A stretch of DNA of 64,000 nt from Escherichia coli (GTDB lineage: Bacteria > Pseudomonadota > Gammaproteobacteria > Enterobacterales > Enterobacteriaceae): assembly GCF_024298765.1 (NCBI RefSeq), contig NZ_CP101210.1; one strand, 5' to 3'. Positions 3,409 to 59,677 of the stretch are shown here, piece by piece. A program made the translations under genes and the position numbers. The notes below the pieces were generated by a model, which did no database searches, was not told the origin of the DNA, and saw only the letters and a program-made list of their open reading frames with translations. The stretch's first letter is position 1. Every line of letters starts with the position of its first letter.

Positions 3409-3911
3409 TGATGTTTTTACGTCAGGAAGACTTTGCCACGGTAGTGCGCTCCACCCCGCTTGTCTCCCTCGACTTTATTGTTGAGAACAGTCGCGGCGAG
3501 TTTCTGCTTGGCAAAAGAACCAACCGCCCGGCGCAGGGTTACTGGTTTGTGCCGGGAGGGCGCGTGCAGAAAGACGAAACGCTGGAAGCCGCATTTGAGC
3601 GGCTGACGCTTGCGGAACTGGGGTTGCGTCTGCCGATAACAGCAGGCCAGTTTTACGGTGTCTGGCAGCACTTTTATGACGATAACTTCTCCGGCTCGGA
3701 TTTCACCACTCACTATGTGGTGCTCGGTTTTCGCATCAGAGTAGCGGAAGAAAAGCTGTTACTGCCGGATGAGCAGCATGACGATTACCGCTGGCTGACG
3801 CCGGACGCGTTGCTCGCCAGTGACAATGTTCACGCTAACAGCCGAGCTTATTTTAATCATGATCCAAGAGCTGTTATTGGTTTAGATAAAAAGGATGTCA
3901 AAAATGTCTGA
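3408..3911 (+). CDS. gmm: GDP-mannose mannosyl hydrolase (Nudix)
   Basis: 167-aa ORF (probable start at second Met, 3411); position after fcl matches the gmd-fcl-gmm order. Confidence 0.85.
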
Positions 3912-5352
3912 TGTACCGTTGATTGCTGTTGTAATGGCTGGTGGTACGGGTAGCCGTCTTTGGCCCCTCTCAAGAGAGCACTATCCGAAGCAATTTCTGC
4001 AATTATCAGGTGAGAATACTTTATTACAGTCAACCTTATTACGACTATCCCCGCTTTCTTGCGAAACTCCATTAGTAATAACAAATGAGCAACATCGCTT
4101 TGTGGTTGCAGAACAATTACGTCAAATTGATCAGTTAAGAGATAATATTATTCTTGAGCCATGTGGAAGAAATACGGCTCCCGCCATAGCTCTTTCAGCA
4201 TTTACAGCTTTGAAGCGTAATGAACAACAGGATCCTATTTTGTTGATTCTCGCAGCTGACCATATTATAAGCAAAGCGGATGTTTTTTGTGACGCTATTC
4301 AAAAATCGAAAACTGTAGCTGAACAGGGGAATATTGTAACCTTTGGGATTATACCTGAATATGCGGAAACAGGTTATGGTTATATAAAAAAAGGAGATCC
4401 TTTTAAAATTTTACCAAATATTACTGATGATAAGTTTTATCATGTCCAACAATTTATTGAAAAACCTAACCATTCGACGGCAGAAGAGTATGTTTCCACA
4501 GGAGAATATCTCTGGAATAGTGGAATGTTTATGTTTAAAGCATCAGTATATTTAGAGGAATTGAAAAAGCACAGGCCTGATATATACGAAATCTGTGAGC
4601 AGACAGCTTCATTATCCTATAACGATCTTGATTTCATACGATTGCCTAAACATATTTTCCAAGATTGTCCGTCGGAATCAATTGATTTTGCGGTTATGGA
4701 AAAAACAAAAAATTGCATTGTTCGTCCAGTAGACATCGGGTGGAGTGATGTAGGCTCTTGGCATTCTTTGTGGGATATTAGTGATAAAACGCAGGATGGA
4801 GATGTCTGTAAAGGTGATATTCTAACTTATAACACTAAAAACAATTATATATATTGTGAATCAGCCCTAGTGGCTGCTGTAGGTGTAGAAGATATAGTTA
4901 TTGTTCAAACAAAAGATGCTATTCTCGTGTCCAAAAAAACTGAGGTTCAGGATGTAAAAAAAATAGTAGAAATGCTTAAGGAACATGAGCGCTCAGAGTA
5001 TATATCGCATCGAGAGGAGTTTCGGCCTTGGGGAAAATTTGATGCGATAGATCAGGGAGAACGATATAAAGTTAAAAAGATAGTTGTGAAACCCGGCGAA
5101 GGACTATCCTTACGAATGCACCATCATCGTTCTGAGCATTGGATTGTTCTTTCCGGCACAGCAAAAGTAACTTTAAACGATAAAACAGTATTGCTTGCTG
5201 CAAATGAATCAATCTACATTCCTCTAGGAGCAACGTATAGTCTTGAAAATCCAGGAATAATCCCTCTGAATCTTATTGAGGTTAGTTCAGGCGATTATTT
5301 AGGTGAGGATGATATTGTACGGCAAAAAGAACGCTACAGAATAGATGACTAA
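3895..5352 (+). CDS. manC: mannose-1-phosphate guanylyltransferase
   Basis: 485-aa ORF; N-terminal [17 protein letters not shown] nucleotidyltransferase motif; C-terminal cupin-like region; exact start uncertain (3895 or 3904). Confidence 0.9.
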
Positions 5353-25084: not shown

Positions 25085-25120
25085 AATAAAAAAGCCCCCG
25101 GAAGGTGATCTTCCGGGGGC
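25085..25120 (-). terminator. his attenuator terminator hairpin
   Basis: gcccccggaag...cttccgggggc stem followed (minus strand) by U-run, between hisL and hisG. Confidence 0.85.
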
Positions 25121-25184
25121 TTTCTCATGCGTTCATGTACCACTGGAAGATCTGAATGTCTTCCAGCACACATCGCCTGAAAGA

Positions 25185-25235
25185 CTAGTCAGGATGATGG
25201 TGATGATGGTGGTGTTTAAATTGAACGCGTGTCAT
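25185..25235 (-). CDS. hisL: his operon leader peptide
   Basis: minus-strand reading atgacacgcgttcaatttaaacaccaccatcatcaccatcatcctgactag = MTRVQFKHHHHHHHPD* (seven consecutive His codons). Confidence 0.95.
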   Translation of the reverse strand: MTRVQFKHHHHHHHPD

Positions 25236-27902: not shown

Positions 27903-28168
27903 AGAAAAATTATTATGACAAGCCTCTCATTCTCTTGTCATTTCCCCCCCATTTAGGCACAATGCGCCGCTGTCAAAAAATGACTAAAAACCGACGTTTC
28001 ATCAGCGTCGGTTATTTTTTGCTTCAAACCAATCATTCATACCAAGAGGCCGGGCTTCGTACCGGATAGATATTTACTAAAAATCGACAGTTGTTGTCGC
28101 TGAGGAATCCAAAAAAATGGGGCAATTTTTTGCTTACGCGACGGTTATCACCGTAAAGGAGAATGACC

Positions 28169-39449: not shown

Positions 39450-39530
39450 GAGATAACTCCTTAAATAACAAATAAATGTGTGTTTTTCAGGAACGAAAGC
39501 TGAATGATTCCCTCACTCAGGGAAACGGCA

Positions 39531-40352
39531 TCAGCGCAGGCTCTCCAGCATCGTTTCTGCCATCACCCACAATGCGCGGTTGAGCTTAATGTCGGTATCA
39601 ATGCTGTGAATGGCCCGGGTATGGATACGTTTTCCTCTGGCACTGCGCCCGGAAATCCCGCCTTTCAGCATATTCTCCTGGATGGTCTGATAAGCACTCC
39701 ACAGGTCCTTACCGTAATCCTCCCGGCGTCGTGGTGTCAGAATGTCGGCGGTGGTGACGGGCTGATGTTCGTCACCATAACGGTAAGTCAGCGCCGCCTG
39801 TGCCAGCGCCTGGCGTGCCGGTGGCGGCAGGACCAGCGACTGCATGGCATCACGCTTCTCCTCTATCCGGTCAAACACGCCCACCACCTCGTAAGCCCCT
39901 TCAATGACTCTGTCCACCACATTTCCCCGGTGCGGAACACGTACTTCCCCCAGAGACTGACCACAGACGCAGCCGTTCTGGCAGACGAACCTGAAGTACC
40001 CCGGCAGCATCTGGTAGCTGGAGGTACCGTCATGAGAGTTGAGCAGAATAATTTCAGGGACATGTTCTCCGTTTATCTCTCCGGCCCGCCGCAGACGCAG
40101 CATGTGTTTTGTGTATCCCCGGCGGCCCGGGTCGCGCACACGGGTCTGGCAGGCGAAGAACGGCTGAAAGCCTTCCCGCTGCAGATTTTCCAGGACGGTA
40201 ATGGTGGGAATGTACGCATACCGTTCACTGCGGGAGGTGTGCCGGTCTTCCCCAAAAATACTGGGTACATGGCGTATCAGTTCTTCATGTGTCAGCGGAC
40301 GGTCACGGCGTATCTGGTTTGCAGCATAACCAAAACGACTTGCTAATCGCAT
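39531..40352 (-). CDS. DUF932-family protein (YfjQ/YafZ-like)
   Basis: 273 aa; conserved member of the CP4-type island backbone. Confidence 0.65.
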   Translation of the reverse strand: MRLASRFGYAANQIRRDRPLTHEELIRHVPSIFGEDRHTSRSERYAYIPTITVLENLQREGFQPFFACQTRVRDPGRRGYTKHMLRLRRAGEINGEHVPEIILLNSHDGTSSYQMLPGYFRFVCQNGCVCGQSLGEVRVPHRGNVVDRVIEGAYEVVGVFDRIEEKRDAMQSLVLPPPARQALAQAALTYRYGDEHQPVTTADILTPRRREDYGKDLWSAYQTIQENMLKGGISGRSARGKRIHTRAIHSIDTDIKLNRALWVMAETMLESLR

Positions 40353-40572
40353 ACTTTGCTCCTTATCGGTGGTTAAGATTTACTGGTGCAATAAATGAAA
40401 AAAGCCGCGTCTCCCGGAGAAGACGCGGCCTGACGGGTGAAATGAATAAGGTTTATTGTCTGAGAGGCCTTTCACTGGCGAGCCACGCATTAAGCGGCTT
40501 TCCGGTAACAATGGCTGGGGCTGTATTTACCTTTGATATTAATAATGTGCAGAGAAACGCATGGTTTACTCC

Positions 40573-40983
40573 TTAGATTTTAAGTTTGTCCTGGGCTACA
40601 ACGACAGGTTTTCCGGATGTGTCGATGACTCCTACCGTCGGTACGCCATTTTTGATTTCGAAGAACGGTTTGTTGCTACCTGAGCACAGTTGATTGTCCC
40701 CGTATTCAATCATTTGTGCTTTCCCGGTTTTCAGGTTAACTACCGAGACAGTGTAGTCGTAGCACCAGGCACCACCACGTTCAAGCACGAAAACATAGCT
40801 GTTATCTTTATAGTTGAACTGATTCTTTGTCTGGCAATTCATACCGTCAATTTCGGTACAGGAAAACGCTTCTGTAGTATTAACGTATTTGATGTTATTT
40901 GGCAGTTTTACTTGTTTCGCAGTAGCGAAGACAGAGAACAGAATAGTTACAGCAACGAGTAAAGTTTTGATAAAAGTTTTCAT
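40573..40983 (-). CDS. small secreted protein, unknown function
   Basis: 136 aa; N-terminal signal peptide MKTFIKTLLVAVTILFSVFATA; 4 Cys in mature part; hairpin plus T-run terminator at about 40401-40440. Confidence 0.6.
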   Translation of the reverse strand: MKTFIKTLLVAVTILFSVFATAKQVKLPNNIKYVNTTEAFSCTEIDGMNCQTKNQFNYKDNSYVFVLERGGAWCYDYTVSVVNLKTGKAQMIEYGDNQLCSGSNKPFFEIKNGVPTVGVIDTSGKPVVVAQDKLKI

Positions 40984-40998
40984 GATAGACTCCTTAAA

Positions 40999-41487
40999 TT
41001 AGTTAACCGCAGCTACGTAGTTTTTCACCAGATACGCGAATTCATGCACGCCAATTTCACCGAACCAAACCAGGTAGGCCGGGTCATCTAAACCAAAGTA
41101 ACGGTAGCCAACAACTTCATGGGTTTTTGGGTTATAGAGTGTTACGATAAAGTCCCAGCCGCAGGTATTGGCTTTGCAACCGTCGCCCTGGAACCAGACT
41201 GTACCGTTAATGTTTACTGGCGTGATACCTCCACCAGGGCCATCCATATAGCCGCCTTTACCGAACATGCCGCTCAGTCCGACCGGTTTTAATGCTTTGT
41301 CGATAGCGGCTTTGTAGGTAGCGTCACCTTCGTACAACTCGTACGTTGATGGACACGCTCCAGGTTGTTCAGCCCAGGCTTCCGGGTTACAACTAAGAGC
41401 TTGTTTTACGGTAGCCGCTTCTGCGTTAAAGTTAAAGCCCGTGAACAGAACCGCCAGAAATAACATAAGGGTATGTAAACGTTTCAT
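40999..41487 (-). CDS. secreted protein, unknown function
   Basis: about 163 aa from internal Met of ORF 40999-41790; signal peptide MKRLHTLMLFLAVLFTGFNFNAEA; Cys-containing motifs GACPST and DGCKANTCGWD. Confidence 0.55.
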   Translation of the reverse strand: MKRLHTLMLFLAVLFTGFNFNAEAATVKQALSCNPEAWAEQPGACPSTYELYEGDATYKAAIDKALKPVGLSGMFGKGGYMDGPGGGITPVNINGTVWFQGDGCKANTCGWDFIVTLYNPKTHEVVGYRYFGLDDPAYLVWFGEIGVHEFAYLVKNYVAAVN

Positions 41488-41817
41488 TGTAAATATTCTT
41501 CCGTTGTAAATGGCGCTGGAAAATTTCTCATCAGTGAAACCTTCCGGAAGTTTCCCCCCCTTGTATGATGTATATCGCCAGTATTTTATTTCATCCCGGC
41601 TGTAATTTTTATATTCCCCGGCACGTGCAATAACGCTGACCAGAGATATAAGGCTCATTAATAACTTTACAGGTAATTTCATAATTAAATTTCCAGTGAG
41701 TGAATTGACAGGTGAGGGGTAAAACTTTCTCTCAGGTAATATATATATGAAAATATTTTCAATAACACCAGACAGGAAAAACACCACCACAGGCGGTGGC
41801 GTTTCTTTGGGGCGTCT

Positions 41818-42888
41818 TTATTTAATCCGGGCCATCGCGTTTCTCAGTGCCAAATCTGCCTCTTCCGTTATATCCAGGCTTTTCTGCAATACCGCCTCTG
41901 ACCGGGTCAGTGCCTGACGTGCTGCCAGCGGTTTCCGGATATGCTCCATCGCCAGCATCGTGTCTTCATAGCCCTGCTGACGCCAGGCGTCGGTATGTGC
42001 CGATGTAAAACTGAGCAGACCGCCGCTGTTGCCACCATCACCTGCATATTTCAGCCTTTTCCGGGGACGGATCTCAAGGATTGTGGTGTCCGGAAAAGCC
42101 TGGCGATCCCATAAAGAACCCTCACTCAGATGCGTCACAATCACCATATTGCATCCGGCATCGACCAGAGGCGTCACAGGGGTATTTCCCTGCATATTTC
42201 GCCATCCTCCCATACCACCATCACCGAACATTGTCCCCTGAACCTCACGGGGACGGAACAGCAGGGGCAGCGCGGCTGACGCAAGCAGAGCCTCTTTCTG
42301 CTGTCCGCGGGGCAGGCTCTGGATATGCTGAAAAACGGCGTTTTTCGTGGTTCCGACACCCAGTTCAGCACGAATGCAGTCAATAATATCCTGCATGCCC
42401 CCTTCTGTGGGGTACAGCGACACATACAGCGGTAGCCCGTCTGCCAGAGCATCAGTATCAAGATAATGATCCATCAGCGCTGTCAGGGGCTCATCTGACA
42501 ACAACGGCTGAGCCATCAGATTGTCAAACCCGTTGATTGTCGATATATGGCGAAGAAGCGTCGTAAGCAGTGCTCCTGCACGTCCGGGGATCTGGCAGAG
42601 GTTCATTGCCTGGAACAATTTTTTCAGCAATGAAAAGTAAACCAATCTGTTTACCGACAGCACCTGATTATTCCCCAGATGATCCCAGAGCGCCTCCAGG
42701 CGTACGGCAGCTTCTGACAGATCGGGAGAGGCCGCGATAATGGCACCATTGAATGCGCCAATGCTGGCCCCTGAAACCATGCTGATCTGTGTACCACACT
42801 CTGCCAGTGCCTTAACCACTCCCGCCTGATAAGCGCCCACCGCCCCGCCACCGGACAGCACCAGCCCCGTTTTCATTTCTGTACTCAT
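41818..42888 (-). CDS. patatin-like phospholipase
   Basis: 356 aa; oxyanion-hole SGGGAVGAYQAG, nucleophile elbow GASIG, catalytic Asp motif FGDGGM; start codon overlaps upstream gene stop. Confidence 0.85.
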   Translation of the reverse strand: MSTEMKTGLVLSGGGAVGAYQAGVVKALAECGTQISMVSGASIGAFNGAIIAASPDLSEAAVRLEALWDHLGNNQVLSVNRLVYFSLLKKLFQAMNLCQIPGRAGALLTTLLRHISTINGFDNLMAQPLLSDEPLTALMDHYLDTDALADGLPLYVSLYPTEGGMQDIIDCIRAELGVGTTKNAVFQHIQSLPRGQQKEALLASAALPLLFRPREVQGTMFGDGGMGGWRNMQGNTPVTPLVDAGCNMVIVTHLSEGSLWDRQAFPDTTILEIRPRKRLKYAGDGGNSGGLLSFTSAHTDAWRQQGYEDTMLAMEHIRKPLAARQALTRSEAVLQKSLDITEEADLALRNAMARIK

Positions 42889-43790
42889 GCAGCCCCCTTC
42901 TGAAATATTTCATCGACCATACTTTCAGAGAGGCGTTCTGCAGAGCAGAGGCGAGGCATGCGAACCGGTAAGTGTTCTGCAGCCTGCGTGGTTGACCAGA
43001 TCACCGGATGCTGCTCTTCACTGCACCAGTCTCCCAGCCAGTTAATCGCGTCATGCCACTCGTTATCTGCCTGCTCCCGGCCCTGACCACCAAGCCAGTC
43101 CAGAGTGTTCAGACGCACGGTTGCACTACCGCCACTCTCCTGTGCCATCTGCGTTAATGCTTTATGTCTGAGAATATCCAGTAGCTGGTTAACCTGGCCT
43201 GTTTCGCTCTGACGTATCACATCACCAAACGCGCCCCAGCGAAGCTCTTCAAGTGCCACATAACAACGTCCGGCAGGGGAAAATGACGCATATCGCCCGG
43301 CGCTCCACCATGAGAATATCTGCTCAAGATGTAACTGCGCCCGCTGAACCTGGTCAACACGGTGGAGTTTTTCTTCAAGATGATTCAGTTTATGGTGAAC
43401 CTGATCGGCCAGGGTGAGTAACTGCTCCCGCGTATCTGCGGAATAATGCGCCAGCCTGGCTGTATCACTGACCAGTGAACTGACCCTGTCGTTTACCCGG
43501 GTAATCGCGTAGTTTGTGGTGGCAAGTGACGTTGTCAGCTCCGTCAGCCAGCGCAGGGATGCCTCAACGCCCTGTGCAAGCGAAGCATTGATGGCATTCT
43601 GCCGTGCAGCACCTTCGCCGCTCAGCCCCTCTTTTAACCGCCGGAAGAACGTGCGCTCTCCGGCCGTGCGGATATGCTCCTGTGCAACATCGATACCGTT
43701 TGCGAAATCAACCACAAATTTTTCAGGAAGACAGGTGAGTACCTGACATACCCGGTTATCAGCAATTTGTTGAATAAATGGTGAAGTCAC
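42885..43790 (-). CDS. coiled-coil protein, possible YjcZ-like partner of dynamin-like GTPase
   Basis: 301 aa, helical/coiled-coil character, no enzymatic motif seen; overlapping stop/start junctions with both flanking genes. Confidence 0.5.
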   Translation of the reverse strand: MTSPFIQQIADNRVCQVLTCLPEKFVVDFANGIDVAQEHIRTAGERTFFRRLKEGLSGEGAARQNAINASLAQGVEASLRWLTELTTSLATTNYAITRVNDRVSSLVSDTARLAHYSADTREQLLTLADQVHHKLNHLEEKLHRVDQVQRAQLHLEQIFSWWSAGRYASFSPAGRCYVALEELRWGAFGDVIRQSETGQVNQLLDILRHKALTQMAQESGGSATVRLNTLDWLGGQGREQADNEWHDAINWLGDWCSEEQHPVIWSTTQAAEHLPVRMPRLCSAERLSESMVDEIFQKGAA

Positions 43791-46183
43791 AGCATTGTCT
43801 CCAGTTCTTCCCTTAACGCCTTACTGTCAGTAATGAGCTCAGGAACTCTTTCATTTAACGCCTGAAGACGCCCGGTCAGCCGTTCCTGCGCCTGCTGATC
43901 GCGTTTATGATCTTCAGAGCTCTGAATCAGCGTGTTACGCAGCTGTTCAACTTTCTCCCTGAATGTACAGAAAAAGGCATCGATTTCCTGGCGGACGGGC
44001 TGGTTAATATCCTGCTCAATGGATGCCTGCAGCTCCCCGAAATATGCCCGGGTCAGTGACATCACCTCCTTCCTGACCTTGTTGATATTGATAACACTGC
44101 GGCTCACATCCACGTTATAGTTTTCCCATCCCCATTCTTTGGTGCCAATCCATCCACAAATCTTTCCAATGAAGCTATCCTTCCGACGGCGACGGGTGAC
44201 TGTCTCCGTTCTTTCCTCCATAAGCGCACTCAGATTTGTTTTTACCGCGAGCCGGGTCTGTAACTGACTGACTGCCGGAAAACTGATTTTTACAGTGAAG
44301 CCCTCATCCGCCAGGCGGGCATTGATACGTCCGGCGATGTTTTCTGTCGCATACAGGGCCGTACCACGAAAACCTGTTTCAATCCCGCTGACGATTTTCT
44401 CCAGCTCAGGCCGGAACTGTGCCTCAGCCTCACTGTGCAGGCTGGTCACGGTCGATTCGATTTGCGTCATCAGTTCAAGGGCTTCCCTGCGATTATTTAA
44501 TGTTATCTCGGGGTTTTCCGGATCAAAGACTCGTATCCTGTCATCCTCCCAGCCCGGGTTATTGATACCGGACCATCGATAAATCTTTCCCCATAATCCG
44601 GACCGGGACCTTCGTTGTTCTGTGTCTTCTTCCTCCAGCATTTGCTGTTCTTTGCGTTTACCGGTTCTGAAATAGTCATTCAGTTCCTCTTCCAGTGAGG
44701 TGCAGACCCCCGTGAGTAATTCCCGGGTTCTGGCATCGATCTCCTCCATGGCCATTCTGACATCAGCGGTCACCTGCTCCTGACAGTCCGCGATTTCCCG
44801 GATATCCGCAAGCAGGCTGGTGATATGCGCCTGCAGTGACTGAATGCTTTGCTGTAGCCCCTGATGGCGTAATGACAGATATTCGCTGACATTTTCCGCA
44901 TTCTGCATCAGTTTTGCGGCGGCAGAATCAACCGCCAGTGCCGCCGCTCTGGAATGGGAACTCTGTATGACTTCCGTTATCAGTTGATCGATAAGTGAGC
45001 CTTCCCACAGGTCTGTTGCCCCTTCAGTTGCCAGTTCGCTGTCTTTACAGACGTAATCTTTTTTCATGCGACCGAAAGCTTCCCTGACAAAATCATCGAC
45101 CCAGGCTTCATCAACAGGAAGGGTTCCGTTTTTCCGTAACTCATGAAGCGCACGGTTAGCCAGGTATGCCTGGCGTGAGGATCCGGGATAAACGCGGGAG
45201 GCGGGCAGCACATCGCTGTTCAGCATTGCCGGAACTTTCTGGCGTACGGCATCTGCCCCATCGCCATTGCGGTCTTTCTCATCAAATTTATTGACCAGCA
45301 CAAACAGGCGGCCAACTGATACGTCCGCAATGGCATTAAGCTCTTTACGGACGTCTTCATCCGCTTTTGAGTTCATCTGGGTGTAATCCATCACTGCCAG
45401 AACCGCAGAAGCTTTCTGCAGTTGATCCCGCATCATCACTTCCATCTGCGGCTGGCCGGCTTCATTAGGGCCGGGGGTATCCAGCAGTGTGAGTGTTCCC
45501 TGGCATGCATCCATCCCCACCAGATGGCTGAATTCCACGTCGATCACCGGCAGTTTCTGCACTTCTGCGTATTCATCAAAAGGAAACTCACTCCCCATTG
45601 CCGCAGCAAGACGAACCAGATCGTTTAACGATGCCAGTCCGGTAAAGATTTCCTCCTCCCCGTGGTATTCATTTTTGAGCCAGCCATCATCCGTCAGAAT
45701 ATCCAGCAGTTCACGGGTATCCCCGGTTTGCAGCAGGGTCTGTGCGACTTGCTGTCCTGCCGGGGTGGCGAGTTTTTCCTGCAGTGTGATTAATAAATTG
45801 CGGACAGGCTGAATATGTTCCAGATGGAGGACCGGCTCAGTTTTTCCGGGAACGTGGCGGATGAGTGTCGGTACAGAGGTCATGGGGCGGTTACGGTTAG
45901 GCAGAATTTCCTGCCCCACAATGGCGTTGATGGTGGTTGATTTGCCTGCTTTCATCGTGCCGACAACAGCCAGCACCATCTCCCTGCGGGCGGTTTTGAT
46001 TTGTTCGCCCTCCAGCTCCTCAATTCTTTTCAGCGCTTTCCGTTTATCAAAAAGCAGCCCGTTTTCGTTCTTACTGTCAGATAACACATCCGGCTCATCA
46101 ACCATTTGCCGGAGCAGATTGATATTCAGTTGCAAAAGCCGGTCGGCTTCATCACAAAGCAGGGCGATGTTCTTTTCGTGCAT
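43787..46183 (-). CDS. bacterial dynamin-like GTPase (CrfC/YjdA/LeoA-like)
   Basis: 798 aa; G1 GTMKAGKST, G3 DTPG, G4 NKFD in N-terminal third; long helical stalk C-terminally; RBS aggaagg upstream. Confidence 0.8.
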   Translation of the reverse strand: MHEKNIALLCDEADRLLQLNINLLRQMVDEPDVLSDSKNENGLLFDKRKALKRIEELEGEQIKTARREMVLAVVGTMKAGKSTTINAIVGQEILPNRNRPMTSVPTLIRHVPGKTEPVLHLEHIQPVRNLLITLQEKLATPAGQQVAQTLLQTGDTRELLDILTDDGWLKNEYHGEEEIFTGLASLNDLVRLAAAMGSEFPFDEYAEVQKLPVIDVEFSHLVGMDACQGTLTLLDTPGPNEAGQPQMEVMMRDQLQKASAVLAVMDYTQMNSKADEDVRKELNAIADVSVGRLFVLVNKFDEKDRNGDGADAVRQKVPAMLNSDVLPASRVYPGSSRQAYLANRALHELRKNGTLPVDEAWVDDFVREAFGRMKKDYVCKDSELATEGATDLWEGSLIDQLITEVIQSSHSRAAALAVDSAAAKLMQNAENVSEYLSLRHQGLQQSIQSLQAHITSLLADIREIADCQEQVTADVRMAMEEIDARTRELLTGVCTSLEEELNDYFRTGKRKEQQMLEEEDTEQRRSRSGLWGKIYRWSGINNPGWEDDRIRVFDPENPEITLNNRREALELMTQIESTVTSLHSEAEAQFRPELEKIVSGIETGFRGTALYATENIAGRINARLADEGFTVKISFPAVSQLQTRLAVKTNLSALMEERTETVTRRRRKDSFIGKICGWIGTKEWGWENYNVDVSRSVININKVRKEVMSLTRAYFGELQASIEQDINQPVRQEIDAFFCTFREKVEQLRNTLIQSSEDHKRDQQAQERLTGRLQALNERVPELITDSKALREELETML

Positions 46184-53346: not shown

Positions 53347-53964
53347 TCAACTGTGAGCGGCATCAACCGATGTACGGTATGCCATAAGCACGTACTGATC
53401 CATCAGATTTGTCAGTGGTTCACTCTGACCCTGACGTGCAATGATCCATTGCTCCAGATCTTTTTCTGATTTGTGTTTCAGGTTTTTCGTCCAGTCGTCA
53501 AGGCTGTTTCCGGTCATTAAGTCAAGCCAGCAGAGCCAGACCAGTTTGAGACGTAACTCCGTGCCGCCAAACTGACGGAAGAGGCTGATCAGTTTGTTTG
53601 CCAGAGAATGTTGCTTCAGGCGCTCACATTCAGACAGCAGGATCCCTTCCAGCATCGGATGATGAACCAGCAGGTGTTCGCTGGTGCATAAATTCACCAC
53701 CAGATCATCATCCAGGGACGGGGAGCTCCGTTTGTCCGGACCATAAATCAGCCGGTGCAGACTCTGGGGAACGATGGCAATCTCCGGTTTTTCGCCATTG
53801 AATGACACCCACCCGGGCGTCAGATTATGGAAATAGTAGATATTCGGATGACACACGCCCCATGATACGGCGTGCCGGGTGAAGCCGGTCAGCCATTTCT
53901 GGTAGTTTTCATGGAGCAGCTCGTAACGGGTCTGATACTGTTGTTTCATTTTCATATTCCTCAC
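53347..53964 (-). CDS. hypothetical prophage-island protein
   Basis: 205-aa ORF co-oriented with and downstream of alpA; no motif recognised. Confidence 0.4.
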   Translation of the reverse strand: MRNMKMKQQYQTRYELLHENYQKWLTGFTRHAVSWGVCHPNIYYFHNLTPGWVSFNGEKPEIAIVPQSLHRLIYGPDKRSSPSLDDDLVVNLCTSEHLLVHHPMLEGILLSECERLKQHSLANKLISLFRQFGGTELRLKLVWLCWLDLMTGNSLDDWTKNLKHKSEKDLEQWIIARQGQSEPLTNLMDQYVLMAYRTSVDAAHS

Positions 53965-54042: not shown

Positions 54043-54249
54043 TTACAGACGGGACTGTGCAATACGCGCCTGCAGCCAGGCTTCCACTTCACTTTTCAGC
54101 CAGCGGGAGCTGCGCCCCATTTTGATGGGCGCAGGAAAGCCCCCATCTTTGATGAGTTTGTCAAACCACTTATCGGTAAGGCCGGTCAGTTGAGTGATAA
54201 ACGCCATGTCGACCATCTGGTCATCCATCAGCGAAACTGGGGTAGCCAT
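54043..54249 (-). CDS. alpA: AlpA-family prophage transcriptional regulator
   Basis: 68 aa from MATPVSLMDDQMVDMAFITQLTGLTDKWFDKLIKDGGFPAPIKMGRSSRWLKSEVEAWL; start trimmed from ORF 54447. Confidence 0.8.
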   Translation of the reverse strand: MATPVSLMDDQMVDMAFITQLTGLTDKWFDKLIKDGGFPAPIKMGRSSRWLKSEVEAWLQARIAQSRL

Positions 54250-54413
54250 GAGAATGTTCCTCCGGATGTTGTTAAACCAGCCGGTGTGGTCATGAAAACA
54301 GCGCGCCACCTTCACCGGCATAACAACCGGGGAGAAACGTAAAAAATAATCGGGAATGTGGCTGTCCGGAGATAAACGGGGGGATTGCGATGGCAGAGCC
54401 GTAGCGGAATCCC

Positions 54414-54425
54414 GGGGGGGGGGGG
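54414..54425. repeat. G12 homopolymer tract
   Basis: 12 consecutive G read directly, about 165 bp upstream of alpA start. Confidence 0.9.
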
Positions 54426-55376: not shown

Positions 55377-55580
55377 TCACCAGCTACACAGTATATACAC
55401 ACTGACGCTGACAGTAGTCAGCAGGACCACAATAATCAGTGCCAGCAGTATGGTAACGATACGGTCTGTATTCCGGTAATAGCCGAAGGGGTCGACAGAA
55501 CCACAATACGGGCAACACACTGTATTATGAGTAATCGCGTTTCCACAGTCCCTGCACTTCTTTTTGCGTATCACCATCAC
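55377..55580 (-). CDS. small zinc-ribbon membrane protein
   Basis: 67 aa; CRDCG...CCPYCG followed by C-terminal TM helix IVTILLALIIVVLLTTVSVSVYIL. Confidence 0.45.
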   Translation of the reverse strand: MMVIRKKKCRDCGNAITHNTVCCPYCGSVDPFGYYRNTDRIVTILLALIIVVLLTTVSVSVYILCSW

Positions 55581-55740: not shown

Positions 55741-56346
55741 GTGGCTATTCCGTATGAACCATACGGAGATTTAACCATGACCTACAAATACAACCCCTTC
55801 TGGCAGCAACGTATTCGTGAGACGGTGCGGCACGCACTGAATGTTCATCCCCGCCTGACGGCATTGCGGGTTGACCTGCGTTTCCCGGATGTACCGGCAG
55901 CAACGGACGCAGCTGTGATATCCCGCTTCATCAATGCCCTGAAAGCCCGAATCGACGCTTACCAGAAACGTAAGCATCGGGAAGGTAAACGCGTGCATCC
56001 CACAACCCTGCATTACGTCTGGGCCCGGGAGTTTGGGGAGTGCAAAGGTAAAAAACACTATCACCTGATGCTGCTGGTTAACCGGGATACCTGGTGTCGT
56101 GCCGGTGATTACCGTGCTCCGGGATCACTGGCCGGGATGATTAAACAGGCGTGGTGCAGTGCCCTGGGAGTGGATGTCGGGTGCCATGCCACGCTGGTGC
56201 ATTTCCCGGCCTGGCCGGCGGTGTGGCTGGAACGCGATGATGACACTGGCTTTCAGCAGGTGCTGGAACGTGCTGACTATCTGGCGAAGGAACATACCAA
56301 AGCTCACTGCACCGGTGAGCGCAATTTTGGCTGTAGCCGGAGTTGA
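55741..56346 (+). CDS. hypothetical prophage protein (possibly YfjJ/YagK-like)
   Basis: 201-aa ORF; His/Cys-rich (HYHLMLLVNRD...); family assignment from memory only. Confidence 0.4.
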   Translation: MAIPYEPYGDLTMTYKYNPFWQQRIRETVRHALNVHPRLTALRVDLRFPDVPAATDAAVISRFINALKARIDAYQKRKHREGKRVHPTTLHYVWAREFGECKGKKHYHLMLLVNRDTWCRAGDYRAPGSLAGMIKQAWCSALGVDVGCHATLVHFPAWPAVWLERDDDTGFQQVLERADYLAKEHTKAHCTGERNFGCSRS

Positions 56347-56599: not shown

Positions 56600-57007
56600 A
56601 TGACTATGTACGCAAAATCCTTTATCGCTCTTGATGGCAACGGACGTCTGACGGGCGCCCGTACTGCACAGGCCGCACCTTATGCTAACTACACCTGCCA
56701 CTTGTGTGGCAGTGCACTCAGATACCATCCGCAATACGACACTGAACTTCCCTGGTTTGAACACACTGACGACAGGCTGACAGAGCACGGTCAACAGTGC
56801 CCTTATGTCAGGCCGGAGCGCAGAGAAATACAGTTGATTAAACGTCTGCAGCAATTCGTACCGGATGCCTTACCCGTGGTGCGTAAAGCCAGCTGGCACT
56901 GCAGACAATGTCACCACGATTATTATGGGGAGCGGTACTGCACACACTGCCAGACCGGAGGATTCAGTATTCCCCGGACAACTCAGGAGGAAATATGCGA
57001 ATTCTGA
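56600..57007 (+). CDS. CoiA-like zinc-finger domain protein, paralog 1
   Basis: 135 aa; CHLCGSAL...PWFEH and WHCRQCHH...CTHCQTGG motifs. Confidence 0.55.
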   Translation: MTMYAKSFIALDGNGRLTGARTAQAAPYANYTCHLCGSALRYHPQYDTELPWFEHTDDRLTEHGQQCPYVRPERREIQLIKRLQQFVPDALPVVRKASWHCRQCHHDYYGERYCTHCQTGGFSIPRTTQEEICEF

Positions 57008-57402
57008 ACTGTTATATGGCGAATGACAGCAAAGGCCATTTTGTTACGGCGAAAGAAGCAGCGAAGCACAACCGCCAGGACGTTTTGTGCTGTGTGTCCT
57101 GTGGATGCCCGTTAACACTTCAGCGGGGCAATGACGGACAACCACCGTGGTTTGAACATGACCAGATGACTGTCGCTGAGAAAATCCTGCTGCGATGCAC
57201 CTGGCTTGACCCGGCAGAGAAAGAGGCCCGTCGTTTGCATCTGCAGGGTATGACGGTTCCGGATTATACGGTGAAGGTGAGAAAGTGGTTTTGTGTGATG
57301 TGTGACGAAAATTATGAGGGGGAAAAGTGCTGCCCGAGTTGTGGTACCGGGGTATACAGCAGGGAGGGGGGGCAGGAGGGCAACTGGAAGGATAGGAACT
57401 GA
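56995..57402 (+). CDS. CoiA-like zinc-finger domain protein, paralog 2
   Basis: 135 aa from ATG 56995 preceded by aggagg; CVSCGCPL...PWFEH and WFCVMCDE...CPSCGTGV motifs; overlaps paralog 1 by 13 nt. Confidence 0.55.
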   Translation: MRILNCYMANDSKGHFVTAKEAAKHNRQDVLCCVSCGCPLTLQRGNDGQPPWFEHDQMTVAEKILLRCTWLDPAEKEARRLHLQGMTVPDYTVKVRKWFCVMCDENYEGEKCCPSCGTGVYSREGGQEGNWKDRN

Positions 57403-57685: not shown

Positions 57686-59310
57686 ATGGGCAACGCAATG
57701 CACTCTCTTAAGACACTTCTACAGTTACCTTGCGGATGGCGATGCAGTCGACAAATTATTAGCTCTGACGGTATAACCCTCCATCTCCACGGAAAACGCA
57801 AAACAGCACAATGTCCTGAATGCTTTAAGCGTAGCGACTCTGTTCATAGTTGTCGTCGGCGCCGGATACAGCATCTACCCTGCTCAGGGCAGACGCTATG
57901 GCTTGTATTTTCCGTCCGCCACTGGTACTGCCGTAACCCGGCTTGTTCACGTAAAATTTTTGCCGAGTCGCTTGCTCCCTTCGCCAGTTCACACCAGCAG
58001 TCTTCACAGGCGTTACAAAATTAACAACGTCAACTGGGATTAATAGCTGGAGGTGAGGCTGGAAAACGGGCTGCAACGGCAGTGGGTCTCCGTTGCAGTG
58101 CTGATACTCTTCTTCGCAGGCTTATCAATACCCCGGAGACGAAACAGTCAGGCGCGCCTCATGTCGGTATTGATGAGTGGGCGTGGCATCGGGGCCACTG
58201 CTGCGGTATGTTAATAGTCAATCCTGATACTCACCGTCCCCTCGTCCTGCTTCCCGGCCGTGATCAGCGTACGCTGGCGACCTGGTTCAGAAAATATCCG
58301 GAAATACAGGTTGTCTCGCGTGATCGCAGTGGAGTCTATGCGACAGCAGCACGTGAAGGTGCACCTCAGGCCAGACAGGTGGCCGATCGATGGCACCTGC
58401 TAAAAAATATTGGTGATGAGCCTGAACGAATGATGTACAGACATATGCCTCTGATACGTCTTGTTGTCAGAGAGTTATCACTGAAGAAATCACCTGAGCC
58501 AGAAATATCTGTGCCTGTAGCATCGCTCCGTCGTCTGGAACGCCTTAAACAGCACATCCGCAAAAAACGGCATCAGCGTTGGACAGAGGTTATGGCCCTG
58601 CATAACAAGGGATGTAGTTTCAGGGAAATATCCCGTATTACAGGCCTGTCGCGAGTGACAGTCAGTCGCTGGGTGAGTTCAGGAACATTCCCTGAAATGT
58701 CAACCAGGCCTCCAAAGCGAGGGCTTCTGGACCCATGGAGGGAGTGGTTAAAAGAGCAACGAGAATGTGGTAATTATAACTCCGGCCGGATATGGCGGGA
58801 AATGGTGGCCAGGGGGGTTACAGGCAGTGAAACCATCGTCAGGGATGCTGTTGCCAAATGGCATAAAGGCTGGATCCCACCGGTTACTACTGCCGCAAGA
58901 CTTCCTTCAGTGTCACGGGTAAGCCGCTGGTTGATGCCCTGGAGAATAATCAGGGGTGAAGAAAATTATGCTTTCCGATTTATTAGTCTGATGTGTGAAA
59001 AAGAACCGGAGTTGAAAATAGCGCAGCAACTGGTACTCGAGTTCTACCGTATTCTGAAAACCTAAAATAAATCACAGCTAAGCAGCTGGTTCACTCGGGT
59101 CCACGAAAGCGGCTCAGCAGAACTTCGGTGCGTAGCTGCGGGGATGGAAGCTGATGCTGCGGCTATATGTGAGGCAATCAGCAGTCGCTGGAGTACTGGT
59201 GTTGTCGAAGGTCATGTAAATCGCCTGAAGGTGCTGATACGCCAGATGTATGGTCGAGCCGGACTTGAACTACTTAGGCGGAGGGTAATGAGTCCACTGG
59301 CATGAAAATC
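57686..59310 (+). mobile_element. ISL3-family transposase gene, disrupted (at least three frames)
   Basis: N-terminal zinc-ribbon ORF 57686-58024, DDE-like ORF 58082-59065 (GIDEWAWHRGH..., DRWHLLKN), C-terminal ...WSTGVVEGHVNRLKVLIRQMYGRAGLELLRRRVM in a third frame. Confidence 0.6.
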
Positions 59311-59348: not shown

Positions 59349-59677
59349 GTGACAGTATGGCCTTTATGTACTCACTTTGTTACCGGTAGCTGGATCATCA
59401 CTACCGTGCCGCAAATGGTGGTGAACAGCATCAATTGTGGAATGAATGTTGCCGAAGCGACCAATGCGCCTCGTTTCCACCATCAGTGGTTGCCGGACGA
59501 GCTGCGTGTTGAAAAGGGTTTAGTCCGGATACGCTCAAGCTGCTGGAAGCAAAAGGTCAGAAAGTGGCGCTGAATGAGGCGATGGGCAGCACGCAAAGCA
59601 TTATGGTTGGGTCGGATGGTGAGTTGTACGGCGCATCCGACTCGCGCTTGGTGGATGATTTAACGGCGGGGTATTAA
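59349..59677 (+). pseudogene. ggt: gamma-glutamyltranspeptidase 3' fragment, frameshifted
   Basis: ...IITTVPQMVVNSINCGMNVAEATNAPRFHHQWLPDELRVEKG then 1-bp shift to FSPDTLKLLEAKGQKVALNEAMGSTQSIMVGSDGELYGASDSRLVDDLTAGY*; only the C-terminal ~110 codons present. Confidence 0.75.

Follow-up and report, generated by a model that had tools for sequence, protein, structure and literature searches.

Architecture of the Gene Pair

Two small overlapping genes in a degraded genomic island of Escherichia coli raise the question of what a tandem pair of related, predicted zinc-binding proteins contributes to the element that carries them. The genes lie in a 64,000-nucleotide chromosomal stretch of contig NZ_CP101210.1, referred to here as the window, where the original prediction described two open reading frames (ORFs) of about 135 aa with a common architecture. 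Both are present on the plus strand. ORF1 (ZnR1) occupies positions 56600..57007 and comprises 135 aa counted from the first ATG; PGAP places its start at 56606, which gives a 133-aa product (WP_000270974.1, ‘putative zinc ribbon protein’). ORF2 (ZnR2) occupies 56995..57402 and encodes 135 aa (WP_001221623.1, annotated by PGAP as ‘zinc-ribbon domain-containing protein’). Pfam searches identified the same two domains in each protein: DUF7828 (PF25165) at aa 4–89 (E = 2.8e-31 for ORF1 and 7.7e-31 for ORF2), and Zn_ribbon_11 (PF11682, formerly DUF3279) at aa 96–128 of ORF1 (E = 1.3e-9) and aa 93–125 of ORF2 (E = 7e-18). The gene pair is thus already known, being PGAP-annotated and having both of its domains in Pfam, and since the family is catalogued and widely annotated, the finding of the pair is not in itself novel. 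In UniProt, family members carry the name ‘Ybl85’ and the spurious name ‘DNA-directed RNA polymerase beta subunit/140 kD’; a literature search for the DUF7828/Zn_ribbon_11 family, its names and its accessions found nothing relevant.

The motifs originally named (CxxC, PWFEH and Wx-CxxC...CxxC-TG) were all found in both ORFs. In ORF1 they read C33-x2-C36, P51-W-F-E-H55, C67 and W99-x-C101-x2-C104...C114-x2-C117-T-G, with equivalent residues in ORF2. An alignment of diverse homologues revealed invariant C33, C36, F53, E54, H55 and C67 in the N-domain and invariant W99, C101, C104, G110, C114 and C117 in the C-domain, with exactly four invariant potential zinc ligands in each of the two domains. 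From this alignment and structural modelling, we infer two zinc sites per protein, C33/C36/H55/C67 and C101/C104/C114/C117. The former, in the N-terminal DUF7828 domain (56609..56866 in ORF1, plus strand), is predicted to be a Cys2-His-Cys finger of the CoiA_N type, and the latter, in the C-terminal domain (56885..56983, plus strand), a three-stranded Cys4 zinc ribbon.

AlphaFold2 modelling with a 44-row alignment gave a pLDDT of 82.9 and a pTM of 0.53, the latter as expected for two loosely connected domains. The modelled N-domain consists of a four-stranded sheet and three helices and is followed by the three-stranded ribbon; pLDDT was 81–94 across residues 1–60 of ORF1. In a model meant to probe their pairing, with ORF1 and ORF2 joined by a linker into a single chain (8-row paired alignment), pLDDT was 52.6 and pTM was 0.38. 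Both proteins have a pI of ~7 and are therefore not obviously basic DNA binders.

The two ORFs also proved to be paralogous, as had been claimed: pairwise BLASTP aligned them over 118 aa with 31% identity (E = 3e-15), far beyond chance. Both agree with the DUF7828 + Zn_ribbon_11 family in domains, length and invariant Cys and His residues and are full members of it; its full-length homologues are mostly stand-alone Enterobacterales proteins of 125–145 aa. Word-index searches returned 322 and 81 relatives, almost exclusively enterobacterial, of which most are ~80–170 aa long and none exceeds 227 aa. A search of 1.84e9 representative proteins with a profile hidden Markov model (HMM) of the N-domain gave 212 matches at E ≤ 1e-3; among the best 150 of these, all of them ≤238 aa, neither an extra domain nor a nuclease was found. 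The absence of a nuclease domain, as originally stated, therefore holds for the pair itself, and the search for full-length nuclease-bearing homologues yielded none among those 150 matches. One 238-aa database protein (P0206) carries two DUF7828 N-domains followed by a single ribbon.

An HNH-like reading of the CxxC...EH...C arrangement was considered and rejected: zinc binding is predicted to take up all four invariant Cys and His residues of the motif, neither an invariant Asn nor a second His is left for catalysis, and there is no HNH match in Pfam. Beside the four potential ligands of each domain, no spare catalytic-type residue remains. For both genes, dN/dS was 0.09–0.33 at informative divergence, values that demonstrate purifying selection. 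Judged by all of these features, ZnR1 and ZnR2 are intact, small, non-catalytic two-domain members of their family.

Many database variants are mosaics that combine the N-domain of one ZnR paralogue with the C-domain of another (P0141, P0148, P0149, P0157, P0170 and P0233), and a third paralogue type, with the signature MNGIKTGLGITPGEH...CLSCHGRL...AWFEH, occurs among them. These mosaics suggest that the island copies of an E. coli genome recombine frequently with one another.

The ZnR1–ZnR2 Junction

The second gene was predicted to start 13 nt before the first ends, behind an aggagg ribosome-binding site, and this is borne out by the coordinates. An AGGAGG Shine–Dalgarno sequence at 56985..56990 (plus strand) lies within the 3' end of ORF1, 4 nt ahead of the ORF2 ATG, and a 13-nt overlap, ATGCGAATTCTGA, runs from the ORF2 start to the ORF1 stop (56995..57007, plus strand), forming a putative translational-coupling junction. 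The 13-nt junction ATGCGnnTnCTGA is kept in 11 loci: the window, a metagenome contig, one IMG/VR E. coli contig and, by record title, loci from Salmonella, Mixta, Hafnia, Siccibacter, Superficieibacter, Tenebrionibacter, Yokenella and an Enterobacteriaceae metagenome-assembled genome (MAG). A GGAGG-type Shine–Dalgarno sequence precedes the junction in related loci, with weaker GAGG/GAGA variants in some.

In further loci, the second ZnR gene belongs to a different clade and follows after a gap of 18–65 nt, or with a 4-nt overlap in locus L042. Many loci (L008, L010, L032, L039 and L040) have a single ZnR gene, so a heterodimer is not obligatory. In strain B771 (L043), an IS110 element is inserted between ZnR1 and ZnR2. 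No promoter, terminator, repeat or Rfam family stood out from background in scans of the sequence around the ZnR genes.

Comparison with CoiA and Other Zinc Proteins

CoiA is a D-loop-resolving PD-(D/E)XK nuclease of natural transformation that carries a small N-terminal zinc finger, for which a C2H2 ligand set has been proposed (bioRxiv 10.1101/2024.02.06.579203). The likeness of the ZnR N-domain to this finger, noticed originally from the motif arrangement, gave a weak, sub-threshold match to Pfam CoiA_N (PF25164; E = 0.35, ORF2). Profile comparison with the N-terminus of a real Bacillus CoiA protein (P0329, a database CoiA with PF25164, PF06054 and PF25166) matched the N-domain profile with 94% probability (E = 1.2e-7) over 50 columns, with the first strands, a ‘GAR’ segment, the CxxC and the P-[WH]-F-x-H motif in register. 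A CoiA query served only to fetch database CoiA proteins, which were 88–98% identical to it and carried the Pfam CoiA domains. As a control, the same profile was compared with three other CxxC proteins and matched them with probabilities of only 2–12% over 9–21 columns, so the CoiA match is specific. The resemblance is thus one of real homology at the domain level, and ZnRs share with CoiA an N-terminal finger of the CoiA_N type.

The homology stops at this finger. In CoiA, CoiA_N is combined with the nuclease domain PF06054 and with CoiA_C (PF25166), whereas in ZnRs the finger is followed by the Cys4 zinc ribbon. Neither ORF matched the PD-(D/E)XK nuclease family PF06054 in Pfam, both proteins ending after the ribbon at 135 aa, and neither matched CoiA_C, which the Bacillus CoiA controls do carry. 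ZnRs lack the two domains that define CoiA, nuclease and C-terminal, and are thus not members of its family. Within the finger, the first His of the CoiA HFAH motif is replaced by Trp in ZnRs, so their ligand set is likely Cys2-His-Cys, in contrast to the C2H2 set proposed for CoiA. The settings also differ: the ZnR family is found in Enterobacterales islands, and CoiA in competence regulons.

Generic zinc ribbons, including eL43/L37Ae, the RanBP2-type fingers of ZRANB2/RBM5/RBM10, Rpo12/RPB12 and the Pirh2 C-terminal domain, had no significant match to ZnRs, and neither did the zf-RanBP Pfam profile. The ZnR ribbon differs from them in its spacing and in the conserved residues Y108, G110, E111, T119, G120 and S123.

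Distribution and Descent

The original prediction explained the pair as a tandem duplication in a prophage island, and neither part of this description was upheld. In a neighbour-joining tree, ORF1 and ORF2 fall into separate deep clades, each with its own orthologues in other genera, so the pair is not the product of a recent duplication. Proteins of the ORF1 type form a tight clade with 60–85% identity between genera, and the ORF2 type lies in the more diverse remainder of the tree. The pair is present in 3786–3806 of 5426 complete E. coli genomes (~70%), at a median of two places per genome, and the region is 100% identical in E. coli strain BE2-5 and in many further strains.

Regarding the prophage, tblastn found no homologue in any of 50,697 phage records, and the element in the window is a degraded integrative island of the tRNA type. 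Homologues were found by tblastn in 33 plasmid records, several of them chromosome-sized, and at three loci on IMG/VR viral contigs; so small a number of viral loci fits a non-phage element.

Operon Context in Related Loci

Upstream of the pair, on the same strand, lies a Rep-like HUH gene of the YagK/YfjJ type (‘inovirus Gp2 family’; 55741..56346, plus strand; PGAP start 55777) with HYH and YLAKE motifs and matches to YagK_YfjJ_C (E = 1e-47) and REP_ORF2-G2P (E = 6e-5) in Pfam. This arrangement was compared across loci pooled from exact-protein look-ups, a one-genome-per-species scan (22 loci) and three more E. coli loci, all annotated with local HMM searches; the titled loci of the family, like those of the scan, were all from Enterobacterales except for MAG bins. 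A same-strand Gp2-like gene was found upstream in 25 of the 27 Enterobacterales loci with enough upstream sequence to be evaluated, usually with an AlpA gene in between, which gives the canonical order Rep-like, AlpA, ZnR1, ZnR2.

The upstream Gp2-like gene is either of the YagK/YfjJ type, as in the window, or of the REP_ORF2-G2P type. Nearly all of the Rep-like genes carry the H-x-H (HUH-type) motif, and the aligned examples carry Y-[LM]-x-K. The Rep-like gene can be swapped for one only 26–38% identical while ZnR1, ZnR2 and AlpA stay 65–95% identical, which argues against a Rep-specific partnership of ZnRs; their target may instead be a conserved one, either in the host or in DNA. The yfjJ and yagK genes of E. 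coli K-12 have no adjoining ZnR gene, so an island remnant can be maintained without ZnRs. Our literature search found no functional study of YagK/YfjJ.

On one side, the operon adjoins the island backbone (YeeP GTPase, DUF932, antirestriction, RadC, DUF987, CbeA/CbtA and DUF5983), and on the other, a variable cargo that includes Dpd, McrBC, an OLD-family nuclease, a WYL-domain regulator, T6SS and metabolic genes. ZnR1 and ZnR2 close a conserved operon at the backbone/cargo border of tRNA-integrating islands of the CP4-44/CP4-57 kind. Elements of this kind were described in a 2025 preprint (PMC12458937) as tRNA-integrating mobile genetic elements with an integrase, an AlpA-like excisionase and an HUH rolling-circle initiator, which carry RadC/ArdB and CbtA/CbeA modules and deliver defence islands; the zinc-ribbon genes go unmentioned in that description. 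What the present analysis adds is the remote homology to the CoiA finger and the conserved Rep-like/AlpA/ZnR1/ZnR2 operon with its coupling junction. The gene pair itself is ordinary, and the operon association together with the conserved coupling offers a useful, if modest, lead.

Two variations on the canonical order were seen. In seven loci (L021–L027; L025 5839–6474), another YagK-like gene and a gene for a conserved 170–200-aa protein come after the ZnR pair, and the module may thus extend beyond four genes. In the L002–L006 loci of Citrobacter and its relatives (4022–4944), an ORF2-like ZnR gene comes 11 nt after a gene for a 177-aa RdcB-like protein rather than after a Rep-like gene; a second module with a Rep-like gene and an ORF1-type ZnR gene comes next, and a Dpd system, for 7-deazaguanine DNA modification, forms the cargo.

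Possible Roles of the ZnR Proteins

The operon context makes a regulatory or accessory role plausible. The presence of two zinc modules, the absence of catalytic residues, the finger shared with CoiA, a nuclease specific for DNA structure, the placement in an operon with an excisionase/activator and a rolling-circle initiator, and the conserved junction together favour such a role. We tentatively prefer to see ZnRs as non-catalytic, zinc-dependent DNA-binding factors, accessory or regulatory, of the island excision/replication module, a reading to which we give somewhat less than an even chance. The conserved 13-nt overlap would lead to production of ZnR1 and ZnR2 in a fixed proportion. The proteins might then bind DNA, either at a specific site or at a branched or single-stranded intermediate, making contact through the finger that CoiA sets ahead of its D-loop-resolving nuclease. 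Rather than acting as enzymes, they would help or regulate island excision or rolling-circle replication. Zinc binding, nucleic-acid binding, the pairing of ZnR1 with ZnR2 and the part played in the life cycle of the island are all steps that we only infer. Should ZnRs control excision or replication, they would help to explain how these islands move and would provide a small, tractable model for the CoiA finger; the islands concerned are tRNA-integrating and carry much of the defence cargo of Enterobacterales.

A narrower version of the preferred reading is that a ZnR1–ZnR2 heteromer serves as a sensor, derived from the CoiA finger, of branched or single-stranded DNA intermediates of excision or HUH replication, licensing a step together with AlpA. 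We consider this improbable. If true, such a DNA-structure sensor would represent a previously unrecognised class of accessory factors in widespread mobile elements that deliver defence islands, and it would give a first functional handle on the ligand of the CoiA N-terminal finger.

The Rep swap, the pI of ~7 and the K-12 yfjJ and yagK loci that do without ZnR genes weigh against a tight partnership with Rep, and they keep alive a rival in which ZnRs are effectors directed at the host or at phages. As anti-defence, defence or host-takeover (‘moron’) factors, they would bind a conserved protein, for example as a decoy, itself without a nuclease, of a CoiA-like recognition module. This is less probable than the accessory role but deserves to be taken seriously. 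ZnR1 is unusually well conserved (60–85% identity across genera) whatever type of Rep adjoins it, the pI of both proteins is neutral, and the genes stand at the cargo border beside Dpd, McrBC, the OLD-family nuclease and the WYL-domain regulator, with antirestriction and RadC modules in the island backbone; a defence screen has also recovered CoiA-domain proteins (PMC9519451). Against it, scans of both ORFs with NCBIfam, PADLOC and PHROG gave nothing significant: the sole PADLOC match was marginal (PDC-S64, ORF2, E = 0.035), and the PHROG matches all had E ≥ 0.03 and no functional annotation. Homologues are absent from the phage records searched and few in plasmids (the 33 records, several chromosome-sized), and the ZnR genes are always co-oriented within the Rep–AlpA operon and do not go with the variable cargo. 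For the anti-defence function raised in the original prediction, the analysis thus returned no positive evidence and no significant PADLOC match.

By analogy with P2 Ogr and P4 Delta, which like ZnRs (here by prediction) are small zinc-binding proteins of integrative elements, the pair could instead encode zinc-finger activators that contact RNA polymerase, the island being a P4-like satellite whose own genes, or those of a helper phage, they would switch on. Delta is organised as a tandem two-unit protein. We regard this reading as unlikely. There is no detectable sequence relationship and the domain architecture differs: neither ORF matched the Ogr_Delta Pfam profile even at E ≤ 10, and hhalign against a P2 Ogr sequence gave a probability of 1.8%. 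Moreover, the annotated genes around the ZnR genes in the related loci that were examined included no capsid-redirection or cos/pac genes, and the family is absent from the collection of 50,697 phage records. The last alternative, that the ORFs are decaying fragments of one frameshifted larger gene or non-functional remnants, is barely credible. The island around the genes is strongly degraded and contains IS elements and numerous pseudogenes, and a few database entries do fuse both ORFs (P0015, P0037 and P0041), but these fusions come from rare clusters that count 1, 1 and 11 members. Both ORFs possess in full the two domains seen in stand-alone members of the family, no long homologue is found among the best 150 of the 212 matches, those 150 being ≤238 aa, the overlap junction is kept in 11 loci, and dN/dS is 0.1–0.3. 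Complete domains, short relatives, conserved junction and dN/dS together refute a single frameshifted gene.

The Island in the Window

The degraded island lies between tmaR/yeeA/sbmC and cobU, that is, at the CP4-44 position. Here the Rep-like gene and ZnR1 have no AlpA gene between them, AlpA having been lost from this place. An AlpA-like ORF, unannotated in the RefSeq record, is located ~1.5 kb upstream on the opposite strand (54043-54250, minus strand) and is followed by an RdcB-like ORF (53347-53964, minus strand) that PGAP records as a partial ‘RdcB family’ pseudogene. The latter is a homologue (E = 3e-78) of a 197-aa protein encoded between AlpA and the Rep-like gene in the Salmonella and Mixta loci. 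The two minus-strand ORFs look like a second, oppositely oriented fragment of a similar module. Just upstream of the AlpA-like ORF, an intergenic run of 12 G (54414-54425) may be a site of slippage or phase variation, or else a homopolymer prone to sequencing error.

A 67-aa ORF (55377-55580, minus strand), divergent from the Gp2-like gene, contains a pair of CxxC knuckles (CRDC...CPYC) ahead of a hydrophobic tail that probably spans the membrane. PGAP lists it as ‘hypothetical’ in the window and as ‘zinc-ribbon domain-containing protein’ in strain B771, and it recurs upstream of the Gp2–ZnR module in other E. coli loci, namely L043 and, as a frameshifted copy, L041. Directly downstream of ORF2, an ISL3-family transposase pseudogene with an internal stop (57686-59305, plus strand) is followed by a gamma-glutamyltransferase fragment (59349-59573, plus strand), where the island is truncated.

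A second integrase and phage remnants are found next to sbcB (window ~39530-44700; L001 3831-9013). The remnants, namely yfdT, yfdR, a partial tail protein gene and a tail fibre assembly gene, constitute a separate degraded prophage. Rfam searches of the window identified the histidine operon leader (25086-25209, minus strand) and the enterobacterial sRNA STnc240 (27948-28022, plus strand), both ordinary features of the core genome.
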